64,000 nt of DNA from an uncultured virus (IMG/VR IMGVR_UViG_3300034061_005656). Its lineage: Duplodnaviria; Heunggongvirae; Uroviricota; Caudoviricetes. Of the stretch, positions 1,434 through 40,079 are shown in pieces; position 1 is the first letter of the stretch, and each line of letters opens with the position of its first letter. Both the position numbers and the translations under genes were made by a program. The DNA is taken from the IMG/VR virus record IMGVR_UViG_3300034061_005656; one strand, written 5' to 3'. The notes below the pieces were generated by a model, which searched no databases, was not told the origin of the DNA, and saw only the letters and a program-made list of their open reading frames with translations.

Positions 1434-1450
<17 letters not shown>
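1091..1450 (+). CDS. Small virion structural protein, probable partner of the collagen fibre
   Basis: '[43 protein letters not shown]' resembles small beta-sandwich proteins that precede phage fibre genes; ATG 1091 preferred over TTG 1073; overlaps the next gene. Confidence 0.65.
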
Positions 1451-3509
<2,059 letters not shown>

Positions 3510-3559: not shown

Positions 3560-4126
3560 ATGAAGCAAAGGTTACCCGAGTACGAAAGCGCGTATCTCAA
3601 CTCTTTGCCGCAGCATCTTATTCGTGACCGCGTTCGTGACCTATGCGCAGACGGCTGGTCCCTTGCAGCAATCGCAGAAGCGTTTGACCCACCTAAGTCT
3701 CGCTCCAGCATTCGCGCCTGGTCCATCTCAAAAAGCCCTCGCACCACACACACTCACCCTTCTCTACCTCCCTCTCCTTTTTCTCCCTCTTCGTCTTCAG
3801 ATAAACAAATACCTGCCCGCGAAAAAAGTAGCGTTTCTGCCCCCGCCCATGCTCCTACTCCCGCGCCCAAAGTAAAGATTCGTCGCCGAGTATATGACCC
3901 AACGCAGCCAAAGATTTCTCCTGCGCAGAAAAAGAAAATCGCCCGTCTTGCTCCTCTTGCTCGAAGACACAGAGCGCGCACCGGGGCGAACAACACATAT
4001 ACTCGAGCAAACAGAGAACTAACTGATGTTTGCAAAAGCCTTTATTATTCAGGTGCATCTGTTCGCGAGTTATCGCTTGCCGCAGGAGTAACATATCGCG
4101 CAATGGCACGAAGACTAGGAAGATAG
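3560..4126 (+). CDS. DNA-binding protein with two helix-turn-helix-like motifs
   Basis: 'GWSLAAIAEAF..KSRSSIRAW' and 'GASVRELSLAAGVTYRAMARRL', joined by a Pro/Ser-rich linker. Confidence 0.7.
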   Translation: MKQRLPEYESAYLNSLPQHLIRDRVRDLCADGWSLAAIAEAFDPPKSRSSIRAWSISKSPRTTHTHPSLPPSPFSPSSSSDKQIPAREKSSVSAPAHAPTPAPKVKIRRRVYDPTQPKISPAQKKKIARLAPLARRHRARTGANNTYTRANRELTDVCKSLYYSGASVRELSLAAGVTYRAMARRLGR

Positions 4127-4864: not shown

Positions 4865-6628
4865 GTGGGCGTATTCCGCCGAGAACAAGTACCACCGACA
4901 CGGAGAACGGCTACACCGCCGTCGCGTGTTGTACAGCAGGTTTTGCCTGCTGGATTCACATTTGCGGAATCAGCGCCATTTTCTGCTCCTCGTGCTTTGA
5001 CCGCGGCGGCAGCTCAGGTTCGCATGAACGACAAGGGCGAAGCTGAGTATTTTAAGAATCGTAGACAGTCAACTTCCTCTGCATGGCAGGGAGAAGCTTG
5101 GGAGTACTACGATGCGATTGGCGAAGTTAAGTATGCGTTTAACCTCGTAGCTTCTATAGTTTCGCGTATTCGTTTATATGCAGCAGTTATTGATAACCCG
5201 GCTGAAACCCCCGTGCCTGTGCGTAATGCAAGCAACATTGATGCACGGCTTGGAGCGGCCGCAGAAAGGGCTCTATCACGTCTTGATTCTGCCTATGGCG
5301 GTCAGGCTGGTTTATTACGAGATGCCGCTCTAAACCTCTCAGTAACAGGTGAGTGTTATCTAGTGCAGATGCCAGCCCGTATTGGTTCTGGTATCCCAGA
5401 ATCATGGGACGTTCGCTCTGTAGACGAAGTTCAAATTGACAGCAAAAACAAATACGGCATTGTTGCTCGAAGAGACTACCTGCCCGGGCAAAACGCCGGA
5501 GCATCAAGCAGTAGCAAAGTTAACAAAGGTATTATTCCTCTACCAGACAACGCTTTTGTTGGTCGTATCTGGCGTGCTCATCCAAGATTTTCTGACGAAG
5601 CGGATTCGTCCCTGCGCGGTCTTTTAGATCTTTGCGCAGAACTTCTTTTGCTAAACCGCACATTCCGTGCAACGGCGCGTTCCCGTCTGAACGCTGGCGC
5701 GCTCTATCTTCCTGATGGTCTTAGCGTTGCGGCGTCTCCAGATCCGAACTATCCGTACGATGATGAAACAGATCTTGACCCCGGGTTTACACCAGAGGAA
5801 GCTGCAGATGAGTTCGAGGACGCGCTCATTGATGCGATGACAACTCCAATTCGCGATGAAGACTCTGCTAGTGCTGTTGTTCCTTTGATTATTCGCGGAC
5901 CTGCTGAGCTTGGTGACAAAATCAAGCAGTTCAAATTTGAGCGTTCATTTGACCCGGCACTTGCTGCTCGGTCTGATCGTGTGCTTGAAAGAATTTTGCA
6001 AGGTTTGGATGTCCCAAAAGATGTTGTTACTGGTCTTGCGAATGTTAAATACAGCAATGCAATGCAAATCGACGAGTCACTATACAAGTCGCACATTGAG
6101 CCATTAATGCTGCTTATTGCAGACGCGCTTACAATTGTGTACTTGCGTCCGTATCTCATTGCAAACGGTTTTCCCGAGGCTGAAGTTGATCGTGTCGTTA
6201 TTTGGTACGATCCGTCAGCAGTTGCTACTCGCAATGACAAAGCTGCAGACGCTGAGTCTGGCTTTCAGAAAATGGCAGTTAGCTTTGACACGTGGCGACG
6301 AATTCACGGATTTAGCGACGCTGATGCGCCAAGCCCAGAAGAAGTTGCACTTCGTATGATTATTGAAAAAGGCGCAATTACTCCAGAACTTACAGAAGCA
6401 GTCATTGGTGCAATTGCTCCAGACCTTATGGCGTCTACAAGAAACGCACAACAAGCAAATAGCGTAGCGCCAATGCCCCCAGAACTTCAGCAAATGCTTC
6501 AAGGCGGTCCTCCTGGAATGCCGCCGATGGCACAACCTGCTGGAGAATCAGAACCTGCCTCTGCGCCAACTGGATTGCTTGAGCCAGCAACAGAAGAAAC
6601 AGCGCCACCAGCGCCGACCGAACAGTAA
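4865..6628 (+). CDS. Portal protein (actinophage cluster-B-like)
   Basis: 587 aa, GGAG RBS; 'AWEYYDAIGEVKY..SRIRLY', 'RIWRAHPRFSDEADS', 'LQGLDVPKDVVTG'; sits at the start of the head module. Confidence 0.85.
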   Translation: MGVFRREQVPPTRRTATPPSRVVQQVLPAGFTFAESAPFSAPRALTAAAAQVRMNDKGEAEYFKNRRQSTSSAWQGEAWEYYDAIGEVKYAFNLVASIVSRIRLYAAVIDNPAETPVPVRNASNIDARLGAAAERALSRLDSAYGGQAGLLRDAALNLSVTGECYLVQMPARIGSGIPESWDVRSVDEVQIDSKNKYGIVARRDYLPGQNAGASSSSKVNKGIIPLPDNAFVGRIWRAHPRFSDEADSSLRGLLDLCAELLLLNRTFRATARSRLNAGALYLPDGLSVAASPDPNYPYDDETDLDPGFTPEEAADEFEDALIDAMTTPIRDEDSASAVVPLIIRGPAELGDKIKQFKFERSFDPALAARSDRVLERILQGLDVPKDVVTGLANVKYSNAMQIDESLYKSHIEPLMLLIADALTIVYLRPYLIANGFPEAEVDRVVIWYDPSAVATRNDKAADAESGFQKMAVSFDTWRRIHGFSDADAPSPEEVALRMIIEKGAITPELTEAVIGAIAPDLMASTRNAQQANSVAPMPPELQQMLQGGPPGMPPMAQPAGESEPASAPTGLLEPATEETAPPAPTEQ

Positions 6629-6637
6629 GGATAACTT

Positions 6638-7135
6638 ATGTACAAAGAAGAAATAAACCCAATCGGATACGGTGTTGGTGACCCAGCTGTCGCTGAATCG
6701 CTTGCAGAGTGTCTCGGCAACGCAGTAGTTCTTGCTTTTAAAGCTCAAGGACATCACTGGAATGTTATGGGCCCAGACTTTACTCAATACCACGAGTTCT
6801 TTGGCGAAATTTACAGTGATGTGTACGGATCAATTGACCCACTTGCAGAAAATCTTCGCAAGCTCAGTGCTCTTGCTCCATACCGTTTGGCAGAATTTGC
6901 CGCGTTGACAAGTATTGAAGACATGGAATGCGGTTGTAATCCAATGAGCATGTGCCACGATCTTTTTGCTGCAAACGAAATAATGCTTGACTGCCTTAAA
7001 GAAAGTTTTGCAGCAGCCGATGCGGCAAACCAACAAGGCATTGCTGATTTTATTGCAGGGCGAATTGATATGCATCATAAGTGGGCATGGATGCTTCGCG
7101 CGCATCTTACCCCCGTCGACTCAATGTTTCATTAA
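6638..7135 (+). CDS. dps: Dps / ferritin-like protein
   Basis: 'HHWNVMGPDFTQYHEFFGEIY', 'IDPLAENLRKL' and 'HKWAWMLRA' Dps signature segments. Confidence 0.9.
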   Translation: MYKEEINPIGYGVGDPAVAESLAECLGNAVVLAFKAQGHHWNVMGPDFTQYHEFFGEIYSDVYGSIDPLAENLRKLSALAPYRLAEFAALTSIEDMECGCNPMSMCHDLFAANEIMLDCLKESFAAADAANQQGIADFIAGRIDMHHKWAWMLRAHLTPVDSMFH

Positions 7136-7162: not shown

Positions 7163-8206
7163 ATGTTAAAGAAAACGCGAGCGCAAAGAGAAGTAGAGAC
7201 TATGCTTGCTTCTGCCATTGTTCCTGAAGAACAAGAGCTTGCCGATGCCTTAGTTGCTATTGCAAAAAAGTACGGCAAGTTTAACGATGATGATACCGGC
7301 GTTTGGGTTGGCTACGAGCCACCCGAACAAAATGAAAATAAAGATATTGGCGTTAAATGCGAAAACTGCATTCTTTACGCCGGCGGGACTATTTGCAAAA
7401 TTATTTATGATGAAGTTGAACCAGAAGGTTATTGCCGTTTTGCTTTAATCCCTGACGGCATTGTTACTTCTGCAATTAAAGTAAAAAGAAAAGAAGAAGC
7501 TGCAAAGCCTGTCGAAGCTCAAGAAGAAGTTCAGCGCCAACCAGATGCAGTTGCTGCCGCGGCTTCTCGTAGAGCTCCGAAAAAAGATCGCATCTACGGC
7601 TCAAAGAAAAACAAACCAGGTTCTGCCGCCGGCGGAAAAAAGATTGTTTTTTCAAAAAAAGTAGAAACAGCGCTCAAAAATAAAGTTAAAGAGCATAATG
7701 AAAAAGCACCGGCTGGCCGTAAAGCAACTTTAGGTCAGCTAAAGGCTGTGTATCGTCGCGGCTCTGGCGCGTTTTCAAGCTCGCACCGTCCCGGCAAAAC
7801 TCGTGACCAATGGGCAATGGCTCGCGTTAATGCGTACCTCAAGCTTCTTAAGTCCGGACGACCAACAAATCCAAACTATAAGCAAGACAATGATCTTCTT
7901 CCAAAAGCACATCCAAAGTCAACAAACTCAGCAGAGTCAATGACAGCGTCCGCTCTGGCAGATAGTGAACTAATCATCGCGCTGAAAGAAGAGAACGATT
8001 ACCAATCGCCCGAACACGCAATCGTAGCGTTTGCAGAATACAGCGGTCTTGGCTATGAAACAGTTCCGGCTTTCCGTGCCGCATGGATGCGTGGCGTAGA
8101 CAACCGAGAAGATCCTTTTGAGCGTGCAAAATCTCTTGCAATAAATCTCTATAAAAACGACAAAGATACTGATCTTCTTCCTCGTAAAAAGGCGTCAGAC
8201 GCGTGA
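7163..8206 (+). CDS. Multi-module head-associated protein (HiPIP-like 4-Cys domain plus basic 'DLLPxxHP' domain)
   Basis: 'KCENCILY....CKII..EVEPEGYCRF'; 'LKAVYRRGSGAF...QWAMARVNAYL...DNDLLPKAHP'. Confidence 0.7.
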   Translation: MLKKTRAQREVETMLASAIVPEEQELADALVAIAKKYGKFNDDDTGVWVGYEPPEQNENKDIGVKCENCILYAGGTICKIIYDEVEPEGYCRFALIPDGIVTSAIKVKRKEEAAKPVEAQEEVQRQPDAVAAAASRRAPKKDRIYGSKKNKPGSAAGGKKIVFSKKVETALKNKVKEHNEKAPAGRKATLGQLKAVYRRGSGAFSSSHRPGKTRDQWAMARVNAYLKLLKSGRPTNPNYKQDNDLLPKAHPKSTNSAESMTASALADSELIIALKEENDYQSPEHAIVAFAEYSGLGYETVPAFRAAWMRGVDNREDPFERAKSLAINLYKNDKDTDLLPRKKASDA

Positions 8207-8454
8207 AAGAAAAACTAATAGCAATACGCGGAAATGACAAACTTTTTTACACGCACGACACGTCAAATGAAAGCTTTACCAAAAGAATGGGTTATATTTC
8301 TAAAAGTAACTCGAAGGCAAAACTAGAGGTTGATGTTGACATCGCGCTTTCTCATGGGTACTGGGAGCCAGCGCCAGAAGTAGAAAGAAAAGCCGAAGGC
8401 AAGTCTACCGCAGTAGCTAACTCACGTAAATTTGTTGAAAAAGCAGAAAGCTAA
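8203..8454 (+). CDS. Hypothetical protein (83 aa)
   Basis: GTGA overlap with the upstream stop; fills the gap in the operon. Confidence 0.65.
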   Translation: MKEKLIAIRGNDKLFYTHDTSNESFTKRMGYISKSNSKAKLEVDVDIALSHGYWEPAPEVERKAEGKSTAVANSRKFVEKAES

Positions 8455-8460
8455 ACGGAC

Positions 8461-9009
8461 ATGAAGAAAAAGAAAATTACGAGAAAAACGTTTACAAAGC
8501 AGCATACTCAGCAACTTCGTTCTGAAATTCTTGCTTTACTAGAGCGGTCAAATCTTTACCTACAGGCAGAGCGCCGTGTACCGTTTGCTACCGCAATTGA
8601 AGTAGCAAACCGCGACTTGCGTAAAACACGTGATAGCGAGCCAAGCGCACGTATTTTTTCTGCAATTAAAGCAGTATCTTCGTACATGTCATTAGCGTCT
8701 CGCAATAAAGAGTCAACGATGGCGCTGAGCAACGCAGATCTTTTGCCTGTCGGTCACCCCAACTCTGCTCGCCCGCACGCGATGACAGCATCTGCACTAC
8801 GTCACGCTCAAGCGCAGTGGACAGCCGCCGATCCTTTAGTTGACCCATCTGCGCGTGAACTTGTCATTCGCGCCCACACGGCAACGCCTGGTTCAACTGA
8901 GCGCGCTCATGCGTTTGCTCGTTTGTCCGCCCTTGGCCCTAGTGCCGCGCCTTTAACAGCATCTGTTGACCCGATTCAATACGAAGACGATAACTACCCA
9001 AAAGAGTAG
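8461..9009 (+). CDS. 182-aa head-associated protein; short product of a predicted -1 frameshift gene
   Basis: 'NADLLPVGHP' is paralogous to the 347-aa protein motif; the ORF ends at the slippery site TAC CCA AAA GAG TAG. Confidence 0.75.
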   Translation: MKKKKITRKTFTKQHTQQLRSEILALLERSNLYLQAERRVPFATAIEVANRDLRKTRDSEPSARIFSAIKAVSSYMSLASRNKESTMALSNADLLPVGHPNSARPHAMTASALRHAQAQWTAADPLVDPSARELVIRAHTATPGSTERAHAFARLSALGPSAAPLTASVDPIQYEDDNYPKE

Positions 9010-9026
9010 CGGCTCGCAAGGGCCGC
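8997..9026 (+). promoter_or_regulatory. Predicted -1 programmed ribosomal frameshift signal
   Basis: In-frame X XXY YYZ heptamer C CCA AAA (8997-9003), 5-nt spacer, hairpin GCGGCTC-GCAA-GGGCCGC (9009-9026); the -1 frame is open into the 1591-aa ORF. Confidence 0.8.
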
Positions 9027-9074
9027 GTCCTTCGTCCACACATAGCTTCAGGCAATAGCCGCGCAGAAAAATCG

Positions 9075-12000
9075 TTGCGCGCTCGCATGCAGCGCCGCGA
9101 TCGTCTCGGACGATTTGCAGAAATGGGTGGAGGATTTTCTTTTAACTTTAAACTTTCTTCCGGTGGCCGCGTTTCAGCAGCCGGGAGAGTTGTTGGGCAG
9201 TCTGGTGAAGACTTAATTGAAGTTGAAATGCGTGGCGTTGCAGGAGTGCCTGATGGTATTTATTCTGCGCCATCACAAAAAGGCACTGCTGCAAAAGCTA
9301 TTCTTAATCTTGAAGGTACCAACGTAAAAACTGGAAATATTAAAAAAAGTATTGCAAAAGAAGACGAAATTGATATCAGTACTGTACAAGTAGCAGCCCA
9401 ACCCAGCGGGTGGACTCCGAGAAATACTGCGGACGGTGAACCTAAGGAATGGTCTTCTGAAGACGGTTTAGTTGTTCGCCAATTTGCTGACTCGTATGTA
9501 GCGTATGACACCGATAGCGCAGGCAATCCTGCAAATGAAATTGTTCGTGGCGAGTCGTGGGCGGACATTCAAAAAGCAACTGCTGATTACGAAAAAAGAG
9601 ATACACCGGCACCAGCTGCTAGCCAAGACACCAACGCTCGCAGTTCTGACAGGGCAACGTCTACGCAACTTCAGCCGACAGACAGTCTTAAAGAAGCAAA
9701 AGCTACTGGTCGTCCACTGTCTATTTTGCGTCCAGGAACAATGCCTAAAAGAACGCAAGCGGCTTATGATTCTATTGTCCAGAGCACAGACGGCGGGTAT
9801 AAGAAAGCCCGTGAGTTACTACAAAAACATAAAGAGCTTTTTGACAGAGTAAAAGAAAAAGAGGCCAGTAAAGGCACGTATACTTCTGAAGAAAATGCAA
9901 TTCTTAATGAATTCAATGACTCGCTAATTGTTACTGAGTCTCAGTGGAACGAGTTAAGTGAGGCCATAAAAGAAGACTACACGGCTGCCAAGGATGGCGA
10001 AGAGTCAGCGTTTACAGAACAAGAAGTGGCAGATATTGTTGAAGCTATCACACGACCATTAGACTACCGACACAAATTGGTGGTAAATAACGCTCGTGCA
10101 ATTAAAGACGGCGGACAAGATATTTATAGCGATGAACTAAGACTTCAAAACTCTGCAGAAGTACTTGAAAAAGCAGATATTGCTATTGCTTTTCCTCTGG
10201 AGGTTCTTGAAAAACTAATAACTGATGGAAGATTTAAGACACAGTTTGAAACAAACACTTCTGGCGGTACACTGTACACTCAAGGGAGAATGCAAGGTGA
10301 TATAGCTCAGTTTGGCTATCATCCGCGCAATGCGCCAGAAACACGTCCAGTCTACGGCTACCTGACTAAAGGTGGAGTTATAGACGATGAAAACTTTGAT
10401 GCAGTTCAAATGTACGGAGAGTTGCAATTTGTTCTTAAAAAAGATGCGCATTCACGTGCAACATACACGACACAGAACAGTCTTGGCTCCGGCTTAGTGC
10501 CGTCACCAATGGGTGTACCCAGCAAGGACGCGTCTGGAGCAGTCGGAAACCCAATGGCAATTTACGCAGAAGCACAAGTACACGGTGGAGTTAGTCTTAG
10601 TGACGTTGACTATGTCGTAGTTAATGTTGGGGAACGGCAACCATGGGCGACACATAAAGTTTCAGAAGAACAATTTGAGTCAATTAGTAAAATGCTTGAA
10701 AGTGTTGGCATACGTGTAGTCCCAGTTAGAGACGGCGAAGTTGTTAATACATGGGATGGCGGTAAGATTGTGTCAGGGCCCAAGACGCAGTCTGCAGAAA
10801 AAGAAAAAACAGCAAAAAGTTCTAAAGAAATACTTGATGAAGCTTCTGCTCTTGGAATTAAATGGCAAGGCAAGACTGTTGGAACATCAAAAGAAGAAAT
10901 TGACCGGCAAATAAATTCATCTGTAAAAACATTAAGAAAGAGTAAAGAGTTAGGACTAACTGATATTCCGGAACTTTCTGACAATATAAAGAAAATATTT
11001 AATGACTACGCTGACGGAAAAATAAGTCTAAAAGGAATGCGCGAAGCAATTCTCTTTACTGACCCCAAAGATGAAGGGTTAAGGCAGTGGGCGTTTGGAA
11101 ATCGGCAGCTCCCAATCGGTTGGAGAGTTGCTGCAGCAAAAGAAATTGCTTTGTCACAAAATGATACAGAGCTTGTAAAAAAAATTGACGATTTCATTAA
11201 GTTTATGGGAGACATAGACAATGCTTCCGATGAAAAACTTGAAGAACTTATTAGAAAAGCAAGCGTTGATTTTGGTAAAAACATGGGAAGCCCTATTATT
11301 CAGACTCCGGATGTGAAAAGAATAATCAGGGGAGCTGGTGGAGTGACAGTCCACGATAGCGACGAAAGAAAGTTAGACAATCTTTCTGGAACAACGTCGA
11401 TGGGCGACAGTATTACGATTACTGCTCGTAGAAAAGTGGAGACAATGTATGGCCTACCATTCACCGGGGAAAACACACCTGAAGATAAAGCAATAACAGC
11501 AATGAGGCCTATTTCTGGCCACTCTCTTCCAAAAGACTCTTATCTTGCAAGAGAGAAGAGAATGAAAAAAATATATGGTGAAGACTTTGTAACCATGTAT
11601 GACTTCCCCATCGGTTCCGACGTTGCAGATTTGTCACAAACAGCAAAATACGGCAGAAGCCATATCGTACTGAGTGACGCGGTAAACGAAAGAACAAAGG
11701 TAGTCAATGGCGACGCGGTAACAAGATTCGGTTCATCTGGCGCAGCTGTTGCCGACTTGGAATCAATCGATGAAGCAGGAATTGCATATGCAGACCCAAT
11801 TGGAATGCTCTTTTCGTCGATGACAGGCGATTCGGGTGCCTCCATAGCTGGGCCTCTTGACCCGTCATTTAAGTATAACGACAAATATAACGAAACGGCG
11901 ACCCTCGGAACATTTGACCCGAGCGAAGTGAGGGCAGTGTACATTGCAGACATTGGTCAAACAAGAAGAGAAATAGGCGATGTTCCGCAGGGAATGAATC

Positions 12001-13850
12001 CAGATTTTTATGGGAATCTAAGCGTAATTTTTGACTTTGCAAGAACACGAGACGAAATTCTTGATTCAAGAGGGACAGAGCTTGTTGCGCAAATAGGTGA
12101 ACCTCGTGGAGCAAACGGACAAATGGGTGCTCTTGAATATCTGCACCCAGAAAATGTAGAACTCTTTAATTCATCTATGACTTCAGCATGGCTCGACAGG
12201 TACGACGAAATATTTGGAGATATACCACGCGAAGTGTTAATACCAAAAGACGAGCCAGAGACAACCCCGTACGAGGCGTACCTAAGAGCAAAAATTACTC
12301 AATTTGATAAAAGTGGAAAAGGAACACTCAAAGAAAACGCTGGAACATTTGGCGAAACAAGAGATGGAAAAGAATTTGGCCTAGATGTAATCAAAGAAGA
12401 GCTTGACCGTGCCATTAGTGCCAGAAAGAATCGGACAAAGGGTGAAGAGAAATTTTCTTCAGATGGTTCTTTGTCACCAGAACCTGAGCCAGCTCAGAGT
12501 GCCGATAGACTCCCAAACAATTCAGTGAGTCTTGAAAAAGAAGCTTCCATGAGTTTTGTACCTAGTGATTACGAGTTAGAAAAAGCTAAAGCAGAACTAG
12601 AAAACCCGGTCAATGCCGCTATTGGGCAAGTGTGGAATATTGGCGGTAAAAAAATACACTTTGGTATGGAAAAAGATCGCAACGTAGTAAAGTACGGCGA
12701 AGACATGGATGACGTAGAAATAGTGCCTATTAACCCGTATAAAATCGCAGGCGTAGAAATGGGCAGTAAAGAAGGAAAAGAGCTCGCGCTTAAGTGGGCG
12801 TACGCTAGATCAGCATTAAGCAGCAATGACGGCACAGGCTATAAATCTACAAGTGAAGTTGACGCGCTTTTGTACGCTGGTGCTCGCGGAGACGAAGCGT
12901 CTTTGGCGCGACTCGAAGAACTGGCTGAAATTGGTAAAGAAAAAGTAGAAAAAATACGAAGTGAAAGACAGGCTGCACTCAAGGACATTGAACCGAAAAG
13001 TGAAACCAATCTTAAGGAGCAAATAGCCAAGGGTTTAGTATCAGAAAAAGATCAAAAGGCAGCAGAACGTATTTTAGGTGGCTCTATTGATGATTTGTAT
13101 GTGGTTCATCAAACTGAGTACGCGTTCCCTATTGACGATGAAGGCAACATTGCACTTAAGCCAGCGTCTGCGTACCCAACAACTCTTGAAGACGGTACAG
13201 AAATATTTGTACCTCGTCACACAATTCATACAGCTCTCAATCACGTTGTTGACCCTATTAAAGAGCGAGGCTGGCCTCCTAACAGTCACATAGCTATTAT
13301 TCCACTTCGCGCCTTATTAGAAGCAAATCCAGGCTCGATCGATAACATTCTTGCAGAAGATACATTTTTTACACCTGAAGCTGGTGGAGTACTAAAATTC
13401 CCTGCCGGGTCGTACAAAACAATAAGTAATGCTACAGATATTGTCTCTGCAAGAGAGCAAGTTTCGGAAGCGATCCGCGAACTTGCAAGACTTGGCTCCT
13501 ACGGCGCACAGGGAGATGAAATAAAGCCAATTATTTTTGAAGAAGGAATTATGGAAATTAGCAATACCGACGCACGCAGGGCGGCATTTAACGCTTTATT
13601 ACAAAGAATTTCAGTCGATTTAGGAATAACAAATCAAATTCACATGGGGACAAATTCGTCTCTTCTTGACAGAGCTGGAGACCAAGATGCGCAGGTGTCT
13701 CAAAATATTGAAAGGTTTTTTACACCAGATTTTCTTTCCAATTTGAGCATAAATCAGATCATGAGACTAACTGTCGGTCGCGACCGCTCGCTATACAGTG
13801 CAGAAACACAAGAGACCAGAGCCGCTCAACAGCAGCAATCTGTTACATAG
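9075..13850 (+). CDS. Giant putative virion-packaged effector 1 (N-terminal RDxxGRF module plus DUF3626-like domains); frame open from 8994
   Basis: N-terminal ~190 aa align by eye with the 4643-aa protein; 'GRFKTQFET..SGG..RPVYGYL..YGE...LK..RATYT..YAEAQVHGGVSL' and a degenerate second copy. Confidence 0.75.
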   Translation: MRARMQRRDRLGRFAEMGGGFSFNFKLSSGGRVSAAGRVVGQSGEDLIEVEMRGVAGVPDGIYSAPSQKGTAAKAILNLEGTNVKTGNIKKSIAKEDEIDISTVQVAAQPSGWTPRNTADGEPKEWSSEDGLVVRQFADSYVAYDTDSAGNPANEIVRGESWADIQKATADYEKRDTPAPAASQDTNARSSDRATSTQLQPTDSLKEAKATGRPLSILRPGTMPKRTQAAYDSIVQSTDGGYKKARELLQKHKELFDRVKEKEASKGTYTSEENAILNEFNDSLIVTESQWNELSEAIKEDYTAAKDGEESAFTEQEVADIVEAITRPLDYRHKLVVNNARAIKDGGQDIYSDELRLQNSAEVLEKADIAIAFPLEVLEKLITDGRFKTQFETNTSGGTLYTQGRMQGDIAQFGYHPRNAPETRPVYGYLTKGGVIDDENFDAVQMYGELQFVLKKDAHSRATYTTQNSLGSGLVPSPMGVPSKDASGAVGNPMAIYAEAQVHGGVSLSDVDYVVVNVGERQPWATHKVSEEQFESISKMLESVGIRVVPVRDGEVVNTWDGGKIVSGPKTQSAEKEKTAKSSKEILDEASALGIKWQGKTVGTSKEEIDRQINSSVKTLRKSKELGLTDIPELSDNIKKIFNDYADGKISLKGMREAILFTDPKDEGLRQWAFGNRQLPIGWRVAAAKEIALSQNDTELVKKIDDFIKFMGDIDNASDEKLEELIRKASVDFGKNMGSPIIQTPDVKRIIRGAGGVTVHDSDERKLDNLSGTTSMGDSITITARRKVETMYGLPFTGENTPEDKAITAMRPISGHSLPKDSYLAREKRMKKIYGEDFVTMYDFPIGSDVADLSQTAKYGRSHIVLSDAVNERTKVVNGDAVTRFGSSGAAVADLESIDEAGIAYADPIGMLFSSMTGDSGASIAGPLDPSFKYNDKYNETATLGTFDPSEVRAVYIADIGQTRREIGDVPQGMNPDFYGNLSVIFDFARTRDEILDSRGTELVAQIGEPRGANGQMGALEYLHPENVELFNSSMTSAWLDRYDEIFGDIPREVLIPKDEPETTPYEAYLRAKITQFDKSGKGTLKENAGTFGETRDGKEFGLDVIKEELDRAISARKNRTKGEEKFSSDGSLSPEPEPAQSADRLPNNSVSLEKEASMSFVPSDYELEKAKAELENPVNAAIGQVWNIGGKKIHFGMEKDRNVVKYGEDMDDVEIVPINPYKIAGVEMGSKEGKELALKWAYARSALSSNDGTGYKSTSEVDALLYAGARGDEASLARLEELAEIGKEKVEKIRSERQAALKDIEPKSETNLKEQIAKGLVSEKDQKAAERILGGSIDDLYVVHQTEYAFPIDDEGNIALKPASAYPTTLEDGTEIFVPRHTIHTALNHVVDPIKERGWPPNSHIAIIPLRALLEANPGSIDNILAEDTFFTPEAGGVLKFPAGSYKTISNATDIVSAREQVSEAIRELARLGSYGAQGDEIKPIIFEEGIMEISNTDARRAAFNALLQRISVDLGITNQIHMGTNSSLLDRAGDQDAQVSQNIERFFTPDFLSNLSINQIMRLTVGRDRSLYSAETQETRAAQQQQSVT

Positions 13851-13960: not shown

Positions 13961-16900
13961 GTGAACGAAGAAAACAACGATTTCGACCCAATTATTGCTG
14001 CGTTAGGCTTTGGCCTCGGTGGTAACTCGAAGGCCGCGCGATCAATGCGCGCGAAACTTCAGCGTCGTGACCGCAGAGGTCGATTTGCCTTTCAGGGCGG
14101 CGGATTCATGTTCAATATCCGCTTTCCGGATGGAGTTCGCAAGCTGTCTGGTCGTGTTGTAGGCGCATCTGGAACTGAAGATGTTGAAATTGAAGTAAAA
14201 GGTAATGACCGTATTCCAGACGGTATCTACGCACTGCCATCAAATAAAGGCGATTCTGTAGCCGCTATTCTTCCCGAGGACGCTCTAAAGGATCTTCCAG
14301 ATGCTGACGTTCGCGCGTCCGAGCGTCTTGCCATTAACGCGGCAGATCTTAAGCGAATGGAGCAGCCTACAGGCTGGACAAAGCAGGTAACTCCTGAGGG
14401 CGAGCCAGAAATCTGGACTTCAGAAGACGGATACTTTGCTAAAAAAGACGGCGATACTTTTACACTTCACCGTGCAGATCTTAGTGACAACTCAATTGGC
14501 GAAGAAGTCGCTCGTGGGAACTCCTGGGCAGACGTACAAAAAGCCGCCCTCGATGACCAAGATGACTATGAAAAAGTTCTTGAGGCAGCGAATACTGCCG
14601 AAAAACCTAGCGCGCCGGGAGCCTCCGCTGCAGATTCTCAAAAAAGAACAAAAGAAAGACTCGAAGCCGCGCGTAAAGCTGGCATTGATTACGGCTCGTT
14701 GACAGACGATGAAATCGCCAAAATCGCGCAGGCGGAATCTGATGAACGATACGCCGGTGGAGTTTGGAAAACTGTCCCGGCTGCAATCCCTAAAGGCGGA
14801 TACAGGACTTCAAAAGGCAACTGGAAAGAGTACGATGAGCCAGATGGCCCACCGACTAGGAAAGAAATTACTGGTGAACAAGCAAAACAAATTCGTCAGC
14901 AGTTTACAGACGCAAGGAAAGAAACTCTTTCTCAGCTACGTGATGCAGTAAATGCCGGAGAAATCGAAAATCTTTCAGATGTTCGTGACATTGCCGAAGG
15001 TCTTAACGTAGCTGGCCAAGCTAATGCCGCTCGTGTAGCAAAGCAAAAGCTTCGGTTTAGCTATAATGGAAAAGATCGCGAAATTACGCCTACAGAAACG
15101 TATTTTAATCCTAAGACCAAAAAAGATAATATTGTTGGTCTTGATGAAAATGGTGAAAAACGTACTTTTACATCGGATAAAATTTTTCCTCCAAATAAAA
15201 AGTCAGAGCAGCCTACTAAAAAAGCCGCCAAAGCGCCAGAGGCACTTGCTCTTGACCCAAACGAAAATCTGGTGCAGCAAATCACAGATGCGGTAGCCGA
15301 TGGCTTAAACGTTCGATTTAATTACAGTGGAAAAGAGCGAAACGTTACCCCGCTTCGCGTGTGGCGTAACCCTAAAACTGAAAAAACAAACCTTACCGCT
15401 AGAGAAGCTGACGGCGCAGAAAAAAACTTTACTCTTGACAAAATCGAGCCACCAACCGGCGCCCCAGACGAGCCACCAACCGGCGGTCCCGGCGAGCCAC
15501 CAACCGGCGGCCCAGACGGAGGCGATTCTCTTGGTTTTGACGACACAGAAGCACTCGTAGATGACATCTATGCTCGCGATTTACTTGGTCTAGAGAATAG
15601 CACTGCAAAGCGCAACTCACTGATGAAGCGTCTTTCCAACGTAATGGCAGACGAAGACCGTGGTATTGGTTTTGACGATTTTGAGCAAGCACTCAATGAA
15701 ATGTACAGCAACGACGAAATCTCTCTGCAAGAACGCAACAATGCTATGACGTATGTTTCGGAGAACATAAGCGATTACGCAGAAGGCGACTTCGGCCCAG
15801 GCGAGCCACCAACCGGCGGCCCAACTGCACCAACCGGTGGCCCAGGAGACTCTCCACAATTCTATAGCACTGACTTTAGTCAAGAGGCTACCTACAACGG
15901 AGAGCCAGTCACTCTTGAGTGGACAAATGATGACCCAGAGTTTGGAATTAGAATAGTAGACTCTGACGGAGAACTAATTGACACTCAGTCGTCTGAAGAC
16001 TATGACTCTCCTCGTGAGTTTGCCGAGTTTATTAGAAGCGAGTTTGGTCAAGAAGTCTACGATACCATTGTTGTAGACGAAGGCACAGGTGCCCCCGCCG
16101 AGCCAGCCGAACCACCAACAGGCGCCCCATCTCGCGATAGTAACATTGATGAGCTGTTTTCTGAATTTGTAAAAGATGATGACCTTTTCAATCTTGAAAG
16201 GTTTTTAGAAGATAGTGTTGATACCTCTGAACAAAACTTTAGAGAGTACTTAAACGACAATGGAATTGACGACGACGTAAGAAACGAAGATGACAAGGCT
16301 AGAGTAGACGATGCAAGAAGAGATTTCTTTGCAGAACTTTATTCTGAAAACTCAGATCGTCTGCGTGAAAAGTTTGCCGAGTACATTAAAAACCGAGACC
16401 CAGAGCTGTACGACGAGCGCATCGGCGAGCCACCAACCGGCGGCCCATCAGCACCAACAGAAGGCCCAGGCGAGCCACCAGAGCAGCACATTATTTCTCT
16501 TAAGGTAGGGACTGCAAAACTTGACAAAGAAGGGTTTGTTCAAACTGGCGTAAGTAAAACGCCTGTTGAAGGCGGGCCTTACGAGTCAACTGGCAATATT
16601 GCTGCTGACATTAGAAAAGAAGCACAGTATGTTATTGACGGCAAAATAAAAGGTGCTAATCCAGATAATGACAATCAATATACTCAGTTTGAAAGATTAA
16701 GCGCTGTCATTGAATTTGAGCGCGAGCGAGGAAATCTGACGGCAGATGACGCGTCATGGCTTCAGTCGTACAATAATGCAGTTTTCCAGTATAGAAACAC
16801 TGCGATGTCTAAAGAAGAATTAAACAATGCAGTTTATTCAATTAATCAGCTAACAGAGCTTCTTGACAAAAAACTGTCTAATTTGCAAAATCCGGCTGCA

Positions 16901-19900
16901 GAAATTGGCCGCAAAGATTCTAAAATATTCTCTGCTCTTACTCAGCTAGGAAGACTGGCTAACGTAGACTTTAGAGATAGAAAAAAAGTTGTAGAAATAA
17001 TTAAAAATATTCTTGATGAAGAAATAAGCAGTGGAAACATAAGCCAACAAGATAAAAATAGTGTCTTACCTGCGCTAGATAATTTAGCAGATCCGATGAC
17101 TTCTGACTCTTCTGTTGAAGGAATTGTTTCAGCGCTTATCGGTGAAGTTAAGTCATGGTACGAAGAGCCAAAAAACTGGACGGGCTTTCCAAATCCGGAC
17201 AAAGTAATACTTGACTCATGGGTAAATAATTTTTCTCCTGACAAGCGTGTAAAAATTAACTACGACGGAGAGCCACTTATCTTTGAGCCAGAGCGTGTAG
17301 TACCTTCTAAGTTTGACGGAGTTACACTAGTCGTCGGAAAAGACATGACAGGCCAGGAGCTGATTCTCCGCTCCGATAGAATAAATACAACAGATAATGC
17401 ATCAGAAGGCGAGCCACCGACAGGCGGCCCAACTCCACCCGCAAATCCTTTTGCAAATCTTCGCGAAACCGACCCCGGTAAGTTTGAGTCGTTTAAAGAT
17501 ATCTACGACGATGCGTCAGACCGCGAAATTGAAGTTCGTATGGCGCTTGACGAACTCTATAACGTACCCTTTGGTAGAGACTACGAAGACCCTGCTACAG
17601 GCGAGCGCATTAGCTCTGGTCAAATTGCAGATTTAATTAAAAAGTACGATACTGAACTTCAAGACATTCGCGCTGGCAGAGTAGCGCCAGAATCAGAGCC
17701 AACAGACGGTTTAACTAATATTGATCCAGCAAAAGAAATGTTTGACGACATGTTTGAAGCGCCGGACGGTGCGTACAAGCCAAACATTTTCGATGTGTAT
17801 GAGCCAAAAGGTCGTCAAGAAGACAATAGCCTTGAGTACACAGACGATCCGTCAGTTCTTTCTAACAGATTCAGCCCGTCTGAACTTATTTTCGCGCTTA
17901 AAGAAGCTGTAGTCCCAGTCAATGGAGAAGAAGCCAGCGGATTTGGATCTCTTAATTTTGGTGACGGCAATGAGCTTGTCCCAGCTGAAGCGCTTTATGA
18001 AGCACTAGACTTAACAGGTGCCAGTGGCCGTAAAACTCTTTCTGCAATTTATGACGAAGAACTTGGCCCAGACGCCGACTCGCCTAATATGCAAAGATAC
18101 GAAATCGACATGGCTGATATGCGCATGCTCGACGATGCAGATCTTCAACCTCTCGATAAGACAATTTTGTCTGACGAAGAAGCCATTGAGTTAAACAGAA
18201 GACTAAGTCTTCCAAGTAATGCTCAAATTCTTCTTGACGAAATGAATGATTACGTTGAAACAAATCCTAAAATTCAAGAGCTTGCAGATTTTTTAAGTCA
18301 GTTTGAAGAATTTGATGACTATGACCCAGATGCTCTTACAAAAGCTCTAGAAAAGTATTTACCATTTGCGTTCAGCAGCGATAGAGAAGAGCAAGACACA
18401 TTTAAAGCTCTTTGGGGAATGCTCATGTCGCTTGACGGTAGCTCAAGCGAAAAATACGATCAAGACTCTCTCTTTAGAGGACCTTTAATGAGAGCGTTTG
18501 AAGACAGATTTGGTAGTTCGTGGGAGCTTGAGTACGATTCATTCCTCGACGAAATCGGTGAGTTTAACGAGTTTGTACAAGGTAAAAATAGAATTGTTAA
18601 CGGAGACGACGATCTCGACTCGGGCTCTGTCGGAGCTAATTTTTTACGTTTAATGAAAGCGTCTTCTAAAATAAATGAAGTACGGCTTCAGCGTTCATTT
18701 GGAGTTTCAATAACCAACCCGGCGTTGGTTAGCAGATACACTACCCCTGGAAGCATTTTTTCGCTAGATCCTCGCCCGTTTTCAACAGCAAATTTTGCGG
18801 ACGAAGATTTGTTTCAGGCGTTTTCTCCAACAAAATCTACAGAACATCGCGTAGTTTTAGTCGCCGCTCCTGGAGAAGTACAAAGTACTTCAGCAGTCGG
18901 TATTTCATGGTTTACAGGCGAAAAAGAGCACATCGGTTTCGGTGAGTTTGAAGTAGTATCAGTCGATCGTAAGCCCGCTTCTCGGTTGCGTGCTGGTGCG
19001 CCCGATGACCTTATTGTCACAATTAAAAAAGCAGACACAAGCGTTGAAGATCTTGCAGCAGAAGACGCCGCTGGCGCGCCTCAAGCAGCGCAAGATGTGC
19101 CAGCACGTGAAATCAAAGATGTTTCAAACTGGACGCGCACAGGCGACCAAACCGGCGGCTCAAACTCTGGCGCATTCTACGAAGACGAAAATGGCCAAGG
19201 CTATTACGTTAAAGTAGCTAAGTCACAGTCTCATGCTGAAAACGAAACACTTGCATCAGCGTTTTATGACGCGCTAGGCGTATCGTCTGCTGAAGTAAGC
19301 GTAGGCGATAGAAATGGCAGTCCGCGAGTTGTTTCAAAGTTAATTCCTAATTCAGTTGGGGATCTCGAATCTCGAGTGGATTCAGGCGATGAAGAGTATC
19401 TTGACAAGCTTCGCAAGGATTTTATTGTCGATGCTTGGCTGGCAAACTATGACGTAACAGGCACCGGATTTGACAACGTCATGTCTGATGGAGACGGGAA
19501 CCCAATTCGTATTGACCCAGGCGGCGCGCTTATGTGGCGCGCACAAGGTTTACCGAAATCTACACTTGGTATGTTTACGGAAGAAAGCGATTACGTACCA
19601 GAAATTGACTCGCTTCGAGACAGCGACATAAACTACTACGCGTGGTCCGTGTTTGGTTCGCTTACTGATGATGATATACGCGCCCAGGCAGAGCGCCTGC
19701 GAGACAGCATGTCTCCAGAGCGAATTAACGCAATTGTTGACAGCATTGTTACTGACCCAGCAGAAGCAGCGTTTATTAAAGAGCGCTTGCGAAATCGTCG
19801 TCAGGGCATTCTTGATCGCTTTGGTCTTGAAGAGCGTCAAGCACTTACAGAACCAGTGTCAATCGAAGACAGCATGGGATATGCTGCACAAGATCTTGAG

Positions 19901-22900
19901 CCTGGCGACGTTACAGTTGGCGACTCGTTTACTGTTGAAAGAGTATTCCGCGACGAAGACACGCCGAAAGGCAAGGTCAGCATTGAAGGCTACTTCCCAG
20001 GTCACCAGACTCAAAGAAAAGAGTGGAACGAAGGCACAATAATTGACGCAATGCGCGGCGGATCTACTCCGCCTAAAGGCGACCGTGAGCCATTGCATCG
20101 ACCTAAGAGGCCAGGATACACTCCAACTGCTCCGTCATTTAGCGGTGGAATTGCAGATGAGCTTGAGGCCGCACAGTCGTGGGGAGAAATTCGTGACATT
20201 CTTGCAGATAAAGACGTTGTCTTTTTTGACTATGAAACAACAGGTCTTGGTGCTGGATCACAGAATCGCCCAGTCCAACTTGGTGCGGTTAAAGTGCGCA
20301 ATGGGGAAGTCATTGAACGTTTCAATGTTTTTATTGATCCCAACGAAGAGCTGAGTGAATGGTCACGCCTGAATCTTAGAGACGCAGACGGTAATCCTCT
20401 CACCGATGAATACCTTTCACAGCAGGTCGGCATGGGCGAAGCTCATTCACTGTTTGTTGATTGGATGGGAGAAAACCCAATTATTGGCGCGCACAACTTG
20501 CCGTTTGACCGAGAAATTCTTGAGCGAATTACAGGTGAAGAAAATATTGATTTTTCACCAGATGGCTACATAGATACTTTGCGTCTTACTCGTGACTTGG
20601 TCAAGAAAAAGACAAAGAAAAACCCAGACGGTCCAGAAGGTCATAAACTTCCACAGTTGCTAAATCACTACGGTCTTGAAATTGAAGGCTGGCACGCAGC
20701 AGACGTTGACGCAGAAAGTGCTGCTAATTTGTTACGAGCCGTTCTCGATGATGCAGCCGGTCGCCCTGACGTTGATCCAAAAACATTTGATTTTAAGACG
20801 CAGCAGCGTGACTACAACGACGCGATGAGTCGTCACAATGAGAATGTAGAAAAGTACAAAGACGAACTTGCCGAGTACGAAGCAAAGAAAGCTGTTGCTG
20901 CCGCATGGAATTGCGGCGGTGGCGGTGGCGGTTTAACTGCCGCGGCTACAGAAGATGGCAATAGTGATTGTAACGTTCCGTCAATCGATGACATGATTGA
21001 CAACGCAAGTGTTAAGCCTGGTGAATTGTCTGACCCAGAGTCAATTACATCTGGCGATACCGCCAAGGGAGACAGTCCATACGATGAAGATGTCACTGAC
21101 ATTATAGAAATCGAGGATTTGTACCCAATAGACGGAGAAGCATACGCTCCGACTGCGCAGCAACAAGCAGTTATCAATTCAGTTTTGTCCAATGAAGGAT
21201 CAGATACTGTAGTTCGTGCAGCTGCTGGAGCTGGAAAAACAAGCACGCTTGTTGCTCTTGCAAAGCGCTTCCAAAAATACAAGCCAGATAAAAAAATTAT
21301 TTACATCGCGTTTAACCGCTCTGTTGCAGACGAAGCGCGTGCAAAAATGCCGTCAAACGTTGAAGTACGAACTGCAGACTCTATTTCATACAACTGGGTA
21401 AAGATAAACTTCCCAGAGTTAATAAAGAAAAAAGGCAATCCAGATCGTCTTGCTGCACCAACAGATATTGCAAAGCATCTTGATGTTCCTTCTGTAGGCC
21501 AAGGCGATGACAGAATTTCAGCAGTCAAAATGGTTAAAGAACTGCGACAAGCGGTATACCAATATACAATTAGCGCAGATAAAGAACTTGGACCTCAGCA
21601 TTTTGAAGAAACTGAACTGACTCCGGATCAAGTGACACCAGAAGTAGTCGAAGCAGCTCAGCGCTGGTGGGCAGACATTTTAGATCCAAAAGGCAAAATG
21701 CCATTTGACTTTAACCACATGAAAAAAATGTGGGCATTGTCAGAGCCTGACTTGTCAGACGAAAGCTCTGGATTAAAAACTGGTGCCGATCTTGTTTTTG
21801 TTGACGAATTTCAAGATACGAACGATGTTCTTGGGACCGTACTTGTCAACCAGCCAAACACTCAAAACGTTTACGTTGGAGATGAAAACCAGGCAATTTA
21901 CCAATTTATGGGCGCCAAAGACTGGCTACAAAAAGTCGTCGTAGAATTTGATCTCCCACTTACTCAGTCGTTCCGCTTCGGCCCAGTAATTGCTCGACAA
22001 GGCAACCGATTCCTACGATTTAAAGAACGCTATCTTGGGTCAAAGAAAACGTTTAGTGTTGAAGGCGCCGGTCCAACAGAAGGCGAGCTCATACGGCCGA
22101 ACACAATGGAAGACGCTGACGCTGTTTTAGTTCGTTCAAACGCCGGAGCGTTTAGAGAAGTTCGTGAAGAACTAATGAACGGTAGAACTGTCGGTGTTAC
22201 AAAAGGCTTCAAGAAAGATCTTGATGATTTTATCGCTGCAGTCGACTGGTTACAAGGCGATCCGGCAACACGCGGCAAGCGCCCAGCAAGAATGCCTGAA
22301 GATCTTCGTCAATTTAATTCTTGGCAAAAAGTAGTCGATGAATCTAAAGATGAAGAAAATGAGTTTAGTCGTAAGCTAGAAATTCTTATTAATGACGTCG
22401 AAGAGCTAGGAATCGAAGAGCTCAAGAATTTGGCAAAGCAGGTTAAGGTAGTCACTGGCGCAGGCGACAAAAAAGACGTCGAATCTGTGCCTTCTCTTCC
22501 AGAAGACTTGTCAGTCGGAATTGAAGAAGCCGATGGAATTGGCAAAGGAATTGGCTTTAAGATTGTAAAAGATGGCATTATCATTACAGGCAAAACATTT
22601 GATGTAAAAGATAAAATCAAATCTTCAAACTCCGGAGTCAAGTGGGATAAGGCGCGTGGTGGATGGTTTATTCCGTCTAGCGCAGACGATGCTAGCCGCA
22701 GACAGCGACTTCAAAACGTTCAAAATGCTGTGTTTTCAGAGTCTGAAAAGCAAGGCGGTAAAGTAGACGTTGTTATTTCAACAGTTCACCAGGCCAAAGG
22801 TCTTGAATGGCCTAAGGTGCGAATGGGCAAAGACTTCTTTGGTCCGCGTAAGCGCAAAGGAATGGAAGACGCTCAGCCTGGAGATCCAAATGCTTGGATT

Positions 22901-33645: not shown

Positions 33646-33756
33646 AAAAGATAGGCAAGTGCCTCCACACTGAGTGTGTTTGGAGTCCCTTTCCTTGGAC
33701 AGAAACCCGATGTAGACCTATAGGTGGTCTACCCTGACTGGCCCGGAGGAGGGACA

Positions 33757-39174: not shown

Positions 39175-39678
39175 ATGGGAATTGTAGATATTAGCAACGT
39201 TTCCGATAATGTCACAAATATTGTTGACTTTATGAACGAAGTTCTTCAAAGAATTGTTGACACGTTTGGGAGCAACAACGTGCCGTTACCAGCTCGGCAA
39301 TATTGGACAGTAGGGCAAACTGCCATAGACTGTGAACAACTTGTCGTAACGCTTATTCAAATTTATTTAGGGCCGCCTGGAGATCAAGCGTCATCTCCGC
39401 AGCGATGTAACATGCCAAGAACCGCAGTTATGACTGTCACTCTTGCACGAGAAATCCCCGTAGTCGGGCAAAATGGACGACCGCCATCTGCTGAAAAAAT
39501 TCAGCAGGCCGCGTACATTTCAGCAATTGATGCGTACACAATGATGCAATCAATGAATTTGTTTGATGTTTGGGAAGAAGGTGGGTTTGGTCCTGGAGTT
39601 ATTGCCACCGCAGACATTCCCGAACCTCAAGGTGGATTTCAACTTGTCAACCTTCAACTAACGATGGCGATTCCGTAA
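39175..39678 (+). CDS. Neck / tail completion protein
   Basis: Position and size; 'AIDCEQLVV', 'PQGG'. Confidence 0.55.
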   Translation: MGIVDISNVSDNVTNIVDFMNEVLQRIVDTFGSNNVPLPARQYWTVGQTAIDCEQLVVTLIQIYLGPPGDQASSPQRCNMPRTAVMTVTLAREIPVVGQNGRPPSAEKIQQAAYISAIDAYTMMQSMNLFDVWEEGGFGPGVIATADIPEPQGGFQLVNLQLTMAIP

Positions 39679-40079
39679 TGGCTGATATTACAATGTCAAA
39701 GGTTATTTTTTATAAGCCTCAAATGGACATGATGCTAAAACAACCGCAAGGGGAAGTTGGCCGGTATCTGCACGTACGAGGTAGAGCAATTCAGGCCGCG
39801 GCGCGCGCACAAGTAGGCGTAAGAACTGGAGCCTTGCGAGCTTCTATTATGATTTCACAGGAGCGAGCAATTGGCGGACAAAAAATGAAAGTTGGATCTA
39901 GTCTGCCGTACGCTCTTATGCATCACGAAGGTACACGCCCTCGAGTTATTAACGCGCGGCCAGGCGGAATGTTAAGATTTACTAGAGGAGCTCGCGTAGT
40001 GTATACGCGGCAAGTTATGCACCCAGGGACAAGGCCAAATAAATTTCTTTCAGATAATTTGTATTTGGCGCTGGTATAG
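39678..40079 (+). CDS. HK97 gp10-like neck protein
   Basis: 'VRTGALRASI..YALMHHEGT..HPGTRPNKFL'; TAATG overlap gives start 39678. Confidence 0.75.
   Translation: MADITMSKVIFYKPQMDMMLKQPQGEVGRYLHVRGRAIQAAARAQVGVRTGALRASIMISQERAIGGQKMKVGSSLPYALMHHEGTRPRVINARPGGMLRFTRGARVVYTRQVMHPGTRPNKFLSDNLYLALV

Follow-up and report, generated by a model that had tools for sequence, protein, structure and literature searches.

In the 64,000-nucleotide stretch of an uncultured lake-water tailed phage (IMG/VR record IMGVR_UViG_3300034061_005656; the whole stretch is called the window below), a programmed -1 ribosomal frameshift at the heptamer C CCA AAA most probably joins a small open reading frame (ORF) of 182 amino acids (aa) to the 1591-aa ORF that follows it. 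Such a fusion had been proposed in a first-pass annotation of the window, and it is now supported by orthologues in which the two parts are fused, by the coding constraint seen against a related locus (L004), by the lack of an indel, by a clade of small proteins that share the ending proline, lysine, one residue and stop (PK-x-stop), and by a second junction of the same kind in the loci L038/L039. Comparison between loci brings out coding constraint across the -1 junction, conservation within the clade and recurrence at a paralogous junction; the slippage itself, the product ratio and the purpose of the site are what we infer from these patterns.

The last codons of the 182-aa ORF are TAC CCA AAA GAG TAG, with CCA starting at 8998 and AAA at 9001. 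Both elements reported in the first-pass annotation, namely an in-frame C CCA AAA and a 7-bp hairpin with a GNRA loop 5 nucleotides (nt) further on, are present in the sequence as described (Table 1). Of the 20,635 codons in plus-strand ORFs of the window, 49 carry an in-phase X XXY YYZ heptamer (Y = A or T), so that one inside the five-codon overlap of the two frames is expected about 1% of the time by chance. Within 29 nt of sequence, the hairpin was predicted to fold with -14.2 kcal/mol (z -2.36), a stability reached by 5 of 200 shuffles. No Shine-Dalgarno-like stimulator was found upstream of the heptamer, and an Rfam search of 8800-9300 gave no match at E <= 1. Transcriptional slippage was rejected, as the run of A is only four bases long. 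In folds of 141 nt, CUACCCA (8994-9000, overlapping the heptamer) pairs with UGGGUGG (9124-9130), which lies about 125 nt further downstream within the conserved codons for E-M-G-G. L004 and L039 show a similar pairing, and conserved coding may have produced it by coincidence.

The -1 frame, which is indeed open from 8994 as first described, reads PKRVAARKGRVLRPHIASGNSRAEKSLRARMQRRDRLGRF. Its first ATG, GTG or TTG is the TTG at 9075, where the gene call begins, and another candidate start is the ATG at 9087. With 181 residues from the 0 frame and 1615 from the -1 frame, the predicted trans-frame product comes to 1796 aa, in good agreement with the earlier estimate of about 1,800. The Shine-Dalgarno duplexes before 9075 and 9087 were scored at +0.2 and +0.4 kcal/mol, respectively, against a median of -3.5 over 43 scored start sites. 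The observation that the TTG has no Shine-Dalgarno sequence therefore stands, while the argument drawn from it is weak, since several other genes in the window score equally poorly. It had also been claimed that similarity to the N-terminus of the 4643-aa protein encoded downstream begins before the called TTG. This is correct: the similarity starts at GNS, seven codons upstream of 9075, and the called start consequently cuts into a conserved domain, which we refer to as the QRRDR module.

Window and L004 are 83.2% identical over 8425-9596 (197 mismatches, no gap) and 93% identical on both flanks. The first-pass annotation had named conservation of heptamer plus hairpin in homologous loci as a check, and at this distance L004 keeps the heptamer, the following GAG TAG, the 5-nt spacer and all 14 stem bases, with two of the four loop bases differing. 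The 24 junction codons at 9003-9074 contain no ATG, GTG or TTG in either sequence. When these are read in the -1 frame, six of the differing codons are synonymous and four non-synonymous, compared to 2/9 in the 0 frame and 0/9 in the +1 frame; the corresponding counts are 53/16 in the 182-aa ORF and 53/32 over 9075-9596. Small as the sample is, the differences across the junction point to the -1 frame alone as coding. An assembly indel had been named as what might undo the proposal, and none was seen: Logan contigs from the runs X5, X6 and X7, belonging to three other studies, all span the site without one. Over 1,140 bases, X5 shows five differences from the window. Two of these fall in the hairpin, where 9017 C>T leaves a GNRA loop and 9021 G>A turns a U.G pair into U-A. 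The nearest record, G001, here called the twin of the window, is identical over 8461-9500 and may not be independent.

A blastn search of 8000-10500 against the phage collection gave no match. At the protein level, the only match of the 182-aa ORF in that collection was in the Actinomycetia phage DSL-LC01 (50% identity, E 2e-40), where the homologue forms the N-terminus of an annotated 9.9-kb coding sequence, WJZ48510.1, running uninterrupted into ...GLGGNSSMARRLRAQMQRRDRYGKFAFMGGGFSF, which corresponds to the beginning of the 1591-aa ORF. An Actinomycetia host has been predicted for DSL-LC01 (PMC10611076), and this gene is not discussed in the parts of that paper available to us. Among eight loci in viral contigs, five are fused in frame, the -1 arrangement is seen in two (the window's twin and L004), and one ends too early. 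The 19 loci in metagenome contigs comprise 16 fused forms, two true splits (L011/L012) and one that ends too early. In L011/L012 the small ORF ends DPFAS*, followed by a 40-nt spacer and a large ORF whose start, of GVG type, is a GTG 25 codons before GLGGNS (counted by hand), while L034/L042 show a split form with a coupled stop and start, TAG-cc-GTG. The window junction differs from these split forms in having no canonical start upstream of the whole module. As the same two parts are found fused or as two genes, tethered and free forms both appear workable. A contig scan with the N-domain alignment, i.e. that of the 182-like domains, found no relative.

Standalone relatives of the 182-aa protein were found in a large protein database at 91, 82 and 79% identity (P0003, P0004 and P0005). 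They are 180-182 aa long and end in YPKE, YPKD and DPKE, so that P-K, one residue and the stop are kept while the residues before them vary. The closest fused protein with full coverage, among proteins of 320-2000 aa, is 62% identical. In a tree of 22 N-domains, with a midpoint root for drawing only and several deep forks unresolved, the four PK-x-stop sequences, including that of the window, form one clade (ultrafast bootstrap 100; SH-like approximate likelihood ratio test, SH-aLRT, 98), whose nearest neighbors are the fused form L013 and then split forms.

A second junction of this kind was located by searching with the -1-frame N-terminus, and is found in L038 and L039, which are identical over the stretch examined. 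Here, the upstream ORF in L039 encodes a DUF5824-like protein of 309 aa, ending ...DADLLPK* as ctC CCA AAA TAG, with the 0-frame stop adjacent to the heptamer. This ORF is homologous to the DUF5824-like gene of the window (7163-8206), whose locus in the twin record, L053, is 64% identical. Five nt after the heptamer follows the hairpin ACGGCCU-UAGC-GGGCCGU, again with 7 bp and a tetraloop (-11.9 kcal/mol, z -2.59, 1 of 200 shuffles as stable). The -1 frame of L039 reads PKIATALAGRTNSHSTFAFSPDSAWRSAKAKLQRRDRYGKFAEMGGGF, and its first canonical start is the M of FAEMGGGF, downstream of the QRRDR motif. The fused relatives L036, L037, L043, L046 and L049 read straight through DADLLPKEYSDLAVAETITAAFPGGKGWRSAKAKLQRRDR. 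Between L039 and the fused L046, the 19 codons running from W to E ahead of this M comprise nine identical ones, nine synonymous differences and one non-synonymous difference (hand count). Judged by this pattern, the stretch clearly appears to be translated, beyond the reach of any ordinary start.

Across the cassettes of the window, L004 and L039, aligned in register, 21 of 21 stem pair cells stay paired, and the stem changes consist of one G-C/A-U exchange and two one-sided changes. The window and L039 cassettes share 20 of 30 positions in register, and downstream of the hairpin their similarity does not exceed that expected by chance (equalled by 1145 of 2000 shuffles). Common descent and convergence of the two cassettes are both compatible with these data.

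The surveys of module junctions gave a similar picture. A profile of 27 modules retrieved 80 viral loci, distributed over 50 distinct junctions, 29 duplicates and one locus without the motif in range. Of the distinct junctions, 44 have at least 100 codons open upstream, three have a start of their own and three have no start. The three start-less junctions (the window's twin, L004 and L038) are also the three that carry a heptamer and hairpin. On inspection, nearly all of the 44 proved to have a domain of the 182-like or DUF5824-like type. The "long" frame of L210 is GC-rich and false, with a GTG immediately behind the stop of the upstream ORF, and L237 carries a different N-domain. Furthermore, a search for CCCAAAA located 70-100 nt upstream of QRRDR codons returned 84 matches, 80 of which were inspected; the module is present in three, each of them in the -1 relation. 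L004 falls outside this pattern because it uses an AGA codon.

Several points weigh against a frameshift at this site. In the available parts of two accounts of frameshift motif rules (Sharma et al. 2014, PMC4066793; Atkins et al. 2016, PMC5009743), the motifs named were not seen to include C CCA AAA, in which position 7 is A. The latter describes C_CCA_AAG as highly shift-prone in E. coli, and no statement on C_CCA_AAA was found in the parts at hand. Covariation in the hairpin is based on three sequences and is not significant, as 160 of 500 shuffles reach the same scores, and the hairpin z-scores are modest. The frame test against L004 comprises only 10 differing codons, the heptamers of P0004 and P0005 are read from protein ends only, and the GLGGNS.AAR stretch just upstream of 9075 is less conserved in the window lineage (IASGNSRAEK) than elsewhere. 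L004 has an ATG in place of the TTG at 9075, readable as a strengthened start, in a column that varies between L, M and A across modules anyway. Lastly, clean two-gene arrangements (L011/L012, L034/L042) and a 4643-aa gene with its own start do exist.

The last two points also favor the main rival, i.e. two ordinary genes and an incidental cassette, with translation of the large protein initiated at TTG 9075 or ATG 9087, either independently or by ribosomes that re-initiate after the TAG. The patchy use of Shine-Dalgarno sequences in this phage adds to this, as a start without one is possible. We nevertheless consider two separate genes improbable. True split forms start 20-33 codons upstream of QRRDR and leave the module whole, whereas a start at 9075 or 9087 would cut it. 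The 24 codons before 9075 carry a -1-frame coding pattern without any indel relative to L004, and in L039 the fully conserved QRRDR motif precedes the first start. The three start-less junctions are moreover exactly those at which heptamer, 5-nt spacer and 7-bp hairpin recur, and, as weak evidence, no promoter-like site was found in 8300-9400.

Translation might instead begin at a non-canonical codon in the -1 frame upstream of the module, e.g. the ATA at 9042, so that the large protein would be made separately, with its module complete and without any frameshift. This would explain the coding constraint before 9075 without recoding, and an ATA is present in both the window and L004 and also after the heptamer in L039. 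Still, we regard it as very unlikely. AUA is a very poor bacterial initiator, no Shine-Dalgarno-like sequence precedes these codons, and the ATA of L039 abuts the hairpin. Nor would such a start account for the conserved heptamer, spacer and hairpin, or for the 0-frame stop right after the heptamer in both lineages. It is extremely unlikely that a frame-breaking mutation or an assembly error has hit a once-fused gene, leaving the large ORF untranslated or decaying. Most relatives are fused, so a 1-nt change would give the same picture, but the same frame relation without indel is seen in L004 and in the contigs of three other studies, the 1591-aa frame is intact with the excess of synonymous differences over 9075-9596 given above, and the arrangement is common to the clade down to 79% identity. 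Finally, the hairpin could have another role, as an mRNA stability or processing element or as a minus-strand terminator (a scan lists 9026-9009 as terminator-like, then TACTCTTTTG, and the L039 hairpin also has a minus-strand T-run), with its proximity to the heptamer coincidental; we find this hardly credible, as it does not address the start-less coding junction, and the terminator version was rejected because the scan gave three such sites against 2.1 +/- 1.3 in shuffles, the T-run is the mere complement of the heptamer, and the long ORFs taken as genes are all on the plus strand, with no minus-strand gene nearby and no obvious minus-strand transcript to end.

With programmed frameshifting as the preferred reading, the following course of events can be proposed. 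Ribosomes translating the 182-aa ORF would reach C CCA AAA and meet, 5 nt on, the hairpin, which would resist unwinding. A fraction would then slip back one base, with re-pairing of the P-site tRNA-Pro (CCA to CCC) and of the A-site tRNA-Lys (AAA to AAA), and would go on in the -1 frame, with AGA at 9003 as the next codon, to the stop at 13850. Ribosomes that do not slip would end at the 0-frame stop one codon away and release a free, all-alpha 182-aa domain ending in ...NYPKE. The second product would be the 1796-aa fusion, consisting of this domain, a linker of about 25 residues, the QRRDR module and a large C-terminal cargo.

The AlphaFold2 (AF2) model of the 182-aa protein is confident and all-alpha (predicted local distance difference test, pLDDT, 87.7), with a disordered C-terminal tail at residues 174-182 scoring below 50; as the last nine residues are disordered in the model, the shift would fall in a linker. 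No Pfam or PHROG match was found for this ORF. Fold searches with the model gave no clear match in PDB by Foldseek (best E 1.0), a best Z of 5.3 over generic helical bundles in the VIA wide fold search, and a best E of 0.06 in BFVD, to uncharacterised phage proteins of which some are labelled prohead protease, XkdF or DUF5824. A motif [DN]ADLLP occurs in the middle of the 182-aa domain (ADLLP, 8737-8751) and again at the C-terminus of most proteins of the DUF5824-like kind (...DADLLPKKRK*, L044-L123). In L054-L059, moreover, a DUF5824-like protein is followed in frame by the second half of a 182-like domain. The 182-like and DUF5824-like "adaptor" families thus seem to share a sub-domain or a recombination joint. 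In related phages, two or more consecutive genes with a QRRDR module are found (L011:306-605 and 2815-3114; contig pairs L032/L037 and L033/L039), with a DUF5824-like domain preceding the first module and a 182-like domain the second. At the first of these positions, the window has the standalone DUF5824-like gene, without a module.

The 27-row alignment of QRRDR modules has the invariant positions Q17, R19, D20, R21, G23 and F25. The AF2 model of the module is of low confidence (pLDDT 58.4), too low for a fold search, and the predicted complex of N-domain and module scored 0.00, without a verdict. In the 1591-aa call, a single weak match to DUF3626 was found (5.6e-08, residues 376-469), and no sequence match in PDB. 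DUF3626 is presumably associated with the Salmonella effector SopF (SopF-family), and SopF is an ADP-ribosyltransferase. The label "effector", used for the large protein in the first-pass annotation, is drawn from gene position and this one weak match.

The 4643-aa protein starts from a GTG 33 codons upstream of its own QRRDR motif and has no 182-like domain; its locus in the twin record (L233) was likewise classed as having its own start. Its domains are an RNase_T-like exonuclease (~2087-2258), a UvrD-type helicase (~2400-3000) and an ADP-ribosyltransferase (3681-3857), and judging by these it is a polyvalent-type giant protein within the head-gene block. As two-gene forms exist in relatives and the 4643-aa gene stands on its own, covalent linkage of N-domain and cargo is not obligatory. 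L004 lacks the equivalent of 8187-8424 (the 83-aa ORF) and of 9597-12468 (about 2.9 kb of the 1591-aa ORF); its large ORF comprises 679 aa, and beyond the start of the 4643-aa gene only 16106-16435 aligns. The cargo part appears to be modular and exchangeable.

All long ORFs of the window that were taken as genes lie on the plus strand. The junction is located in the head-gene block, between the portal and major head genes (Table 1), and the DUF5824-like gene is separated from the 1591-aa ORF by ORFs of 83 and 182 aa. Genes for the major tail, adaptor, tape measure and distal tail proteins, followed by replication genes, are also found in the window. The ferritin/Dps-like gene adjoins the 3' side of the portal gene, an odd neighbor for a head module. 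A likely tail assembly chaperone pair lies upstream of the tape measure gene (40147-40497, with a -1 frame open from 40455 and an ORF at 40530-40892). The 14-codon overlap of this pair has no canonical X XXY YYZ heptamer, and a frameshift there, if any, would use a non-standard motif; for this reason the pair says nothing on which heptamers the host uses. Neither was an X XXY YYZ heptamer found in the overlap of the ORFs 39175-39678 and 39570-40079.

Table 1. Features of the window and of the second junction, with positions in the window unless a locus is given.
Feature	Position	Strand	Remarks
Collagen-like tail fibre	1434-3509	+	
Portal	4865-6628	+	phrog_776, 2e-103
Ferritin/Dps-like gene	6638-7135	+	PF00210, 2.9e-16
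DUF5824-like protein, 347 aa	7163-8206	+	DUF5824 match 1e-07; standalone in window
182-aa ORF, ATG start	8461-9009	+	0 frame
Slippery heptamer C CCA AAA, X XXY YYZ phase	8997-9003	+	two codons before 0-frame stop
-1-frame part of predicted trans-frame product, 1615 aa	9003-13850	+	gene call from TTG 9075 = 1591 aa
Spacer GAGTA, 5 nt	9004-9008	+	includes start of 0-frame stop TAG 9007-9009
Predicted stimulatory hairpin GCGGCTC-GCAA-GGGCCGC	9009-9026	+	7-bp stem + GCAA tetraloop
QRRDR module, GGNS.AAR..RAKLQRRDR.GRFAEMGGGF then small beta region	9051-9341	+	begins upstream of called TTG
1591-aa gene call, TTG start	9075-13850	+	
4643-aa paralogous cargo protein	13961-27892	+	own GTG start
MuF-like protein, 1364 aa	29003-33097	+	
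Major head protein	33724-35664	+	
Tape measure gene	40947-43961	+	
Second start-less -1 junction with cassette	L039:1426-1455		also L038, L044, L045, L165, L175, L230, L231

Several known systems resemble the predicted site in part. E. coli dnaX and the IS911/IS3 orfAB genes are -1 frameshift sites with a heptamer and a downstream stem-loop. Like them, the window site combines an X XXY YYZ heptamer whose last codon is for lysine with a stable hairpin a short spacer away, has a 0-frame stop soon after and would give two products with a common N-terminus. Unlike dnaX and IS911, it has C CCA AAA instead of A AAA AAG and no upstream Shine-Dalgarno-like stimulator, and it belongs to an unrelated gene family. 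Lambda-like phages reportedly use a frameshift for the tail assembly chaperones gpG/gpGT, in a description attributed to Xu and co-workers in 2004. As in that pair, a phage morphogenesis gene would yield a small product and a rarer, C-terminally extended one with a common N-terminal domain, and a fixed product ratio is the presumed purpose in both. The differences are that the window site is situated in the head-gene block and not directly upstream of the tape measure gene, that its extension is about 1,600 aa compared to about 100-150, and that the proteins are unrelated. The gpG/gpGT frameshift also appears in a figure legend of the review cited above (PMC5009743).

A frameshift in a capsid gene is also responsible for T7 10A/10B. 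T4 Alt, in turn, is a packaged ADP-ribosyltransferase. Both in T7 and in the major head protein of Lactobacillus phage A2 (listed among the references of PMC10885494), some of the molecules are extended through a -1 frameshift close to the 3' end of a gene related to the head, as is predicted for the window. The T7 and A2 extensions are short decorations of the capsid protein, whereas that of the window would be a large, separately evolving cargo, found fused or as an independent gene in relatives. The giant multidomain proteins among portal, MuF and capsid genes, finally, are reminiscent of T4 Alt and of polyvalent virion-packaged phage proteins (Iyer et al. 2017, PMC5512222). Compared with the definition of the latter, the 4643-aa paralogue is multi-domain, while the 1591-aa part has the single DUF3626 match and a fitting portal, MuF and major head context. 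Packaging of the large proteins of the window in the virion is suggested by gene position. The terms "frameshift", DUF5824 and DUF3626 do not occur in PMC5512222, and a study on ADP-ribosyltransferases in freshwater phages (Kavagutti et al. 2019, PMC6802176) does not mention recoding in the parts available. No description of frameshifting in ejection, internal, packaged or polyvalent phage proteins was found in the titles and abstracts of the open-access literature.

Given the fused, split and frameshifted forms among relatives, together with a 4643-aa cargo that has no N-domain, the site may be read as supplying both free and tethered N-domain. Our guess, by analogy with gpG/gpGT, is that it sets the ratio of free N-domain to N-domain-cargo for head assembly or for the packaging of giant virion proteins. 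A more far-reaching idea, which we put forward as speculative and rather doubtful, is that heptamer, 5-nt spacer and hairpin constitute a portable recoding cassette. This would have arisen in, or been transferred into, the disordered linker upstream of the QRRDR module at least twice, behind the 182-aa and the DUF5824-like domain, thereby turning a fused gene into one with dual output. The free adaptor might then act in trans, e.g. on the 4643-aa paralogue, while the rare fusion would set the number of giant cargo molecules per capsid. If this were true, a single group of lake phages would display fused, split and frameshifted answers to one cargo-loading problem.

The mechanism as such, a canonical -1 frameshift, is already known; what is new is the gene context, i.e. 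an adaptor domain joined to a giant head-module protein, at two paralogous junctions. The start that gene callers assign to the large protein is an internal TTG or ATG, and in L039 the M that follows the key motif; in this way the conserved module is cut and the upstream link hidden. Annotations across this freshwater phage group are probably wrong at these junctions. The relative DSL-LC01 suggests Actinomycetia as hosts of the group. With the same adaptor and cargo being fused, split or joined by a predicted frameshift in close relatives, these phages offer a natural three-way comparison, by which the recruitment and the numbers of giant virion proteins (1,600-4,600 aa, some with ADP-ribosyltransferase, helicase or nuclease domains) become testable. 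The site would thereby add a further use of programmed frameshifting in phages to those in tail chaperones and capsid decorations.

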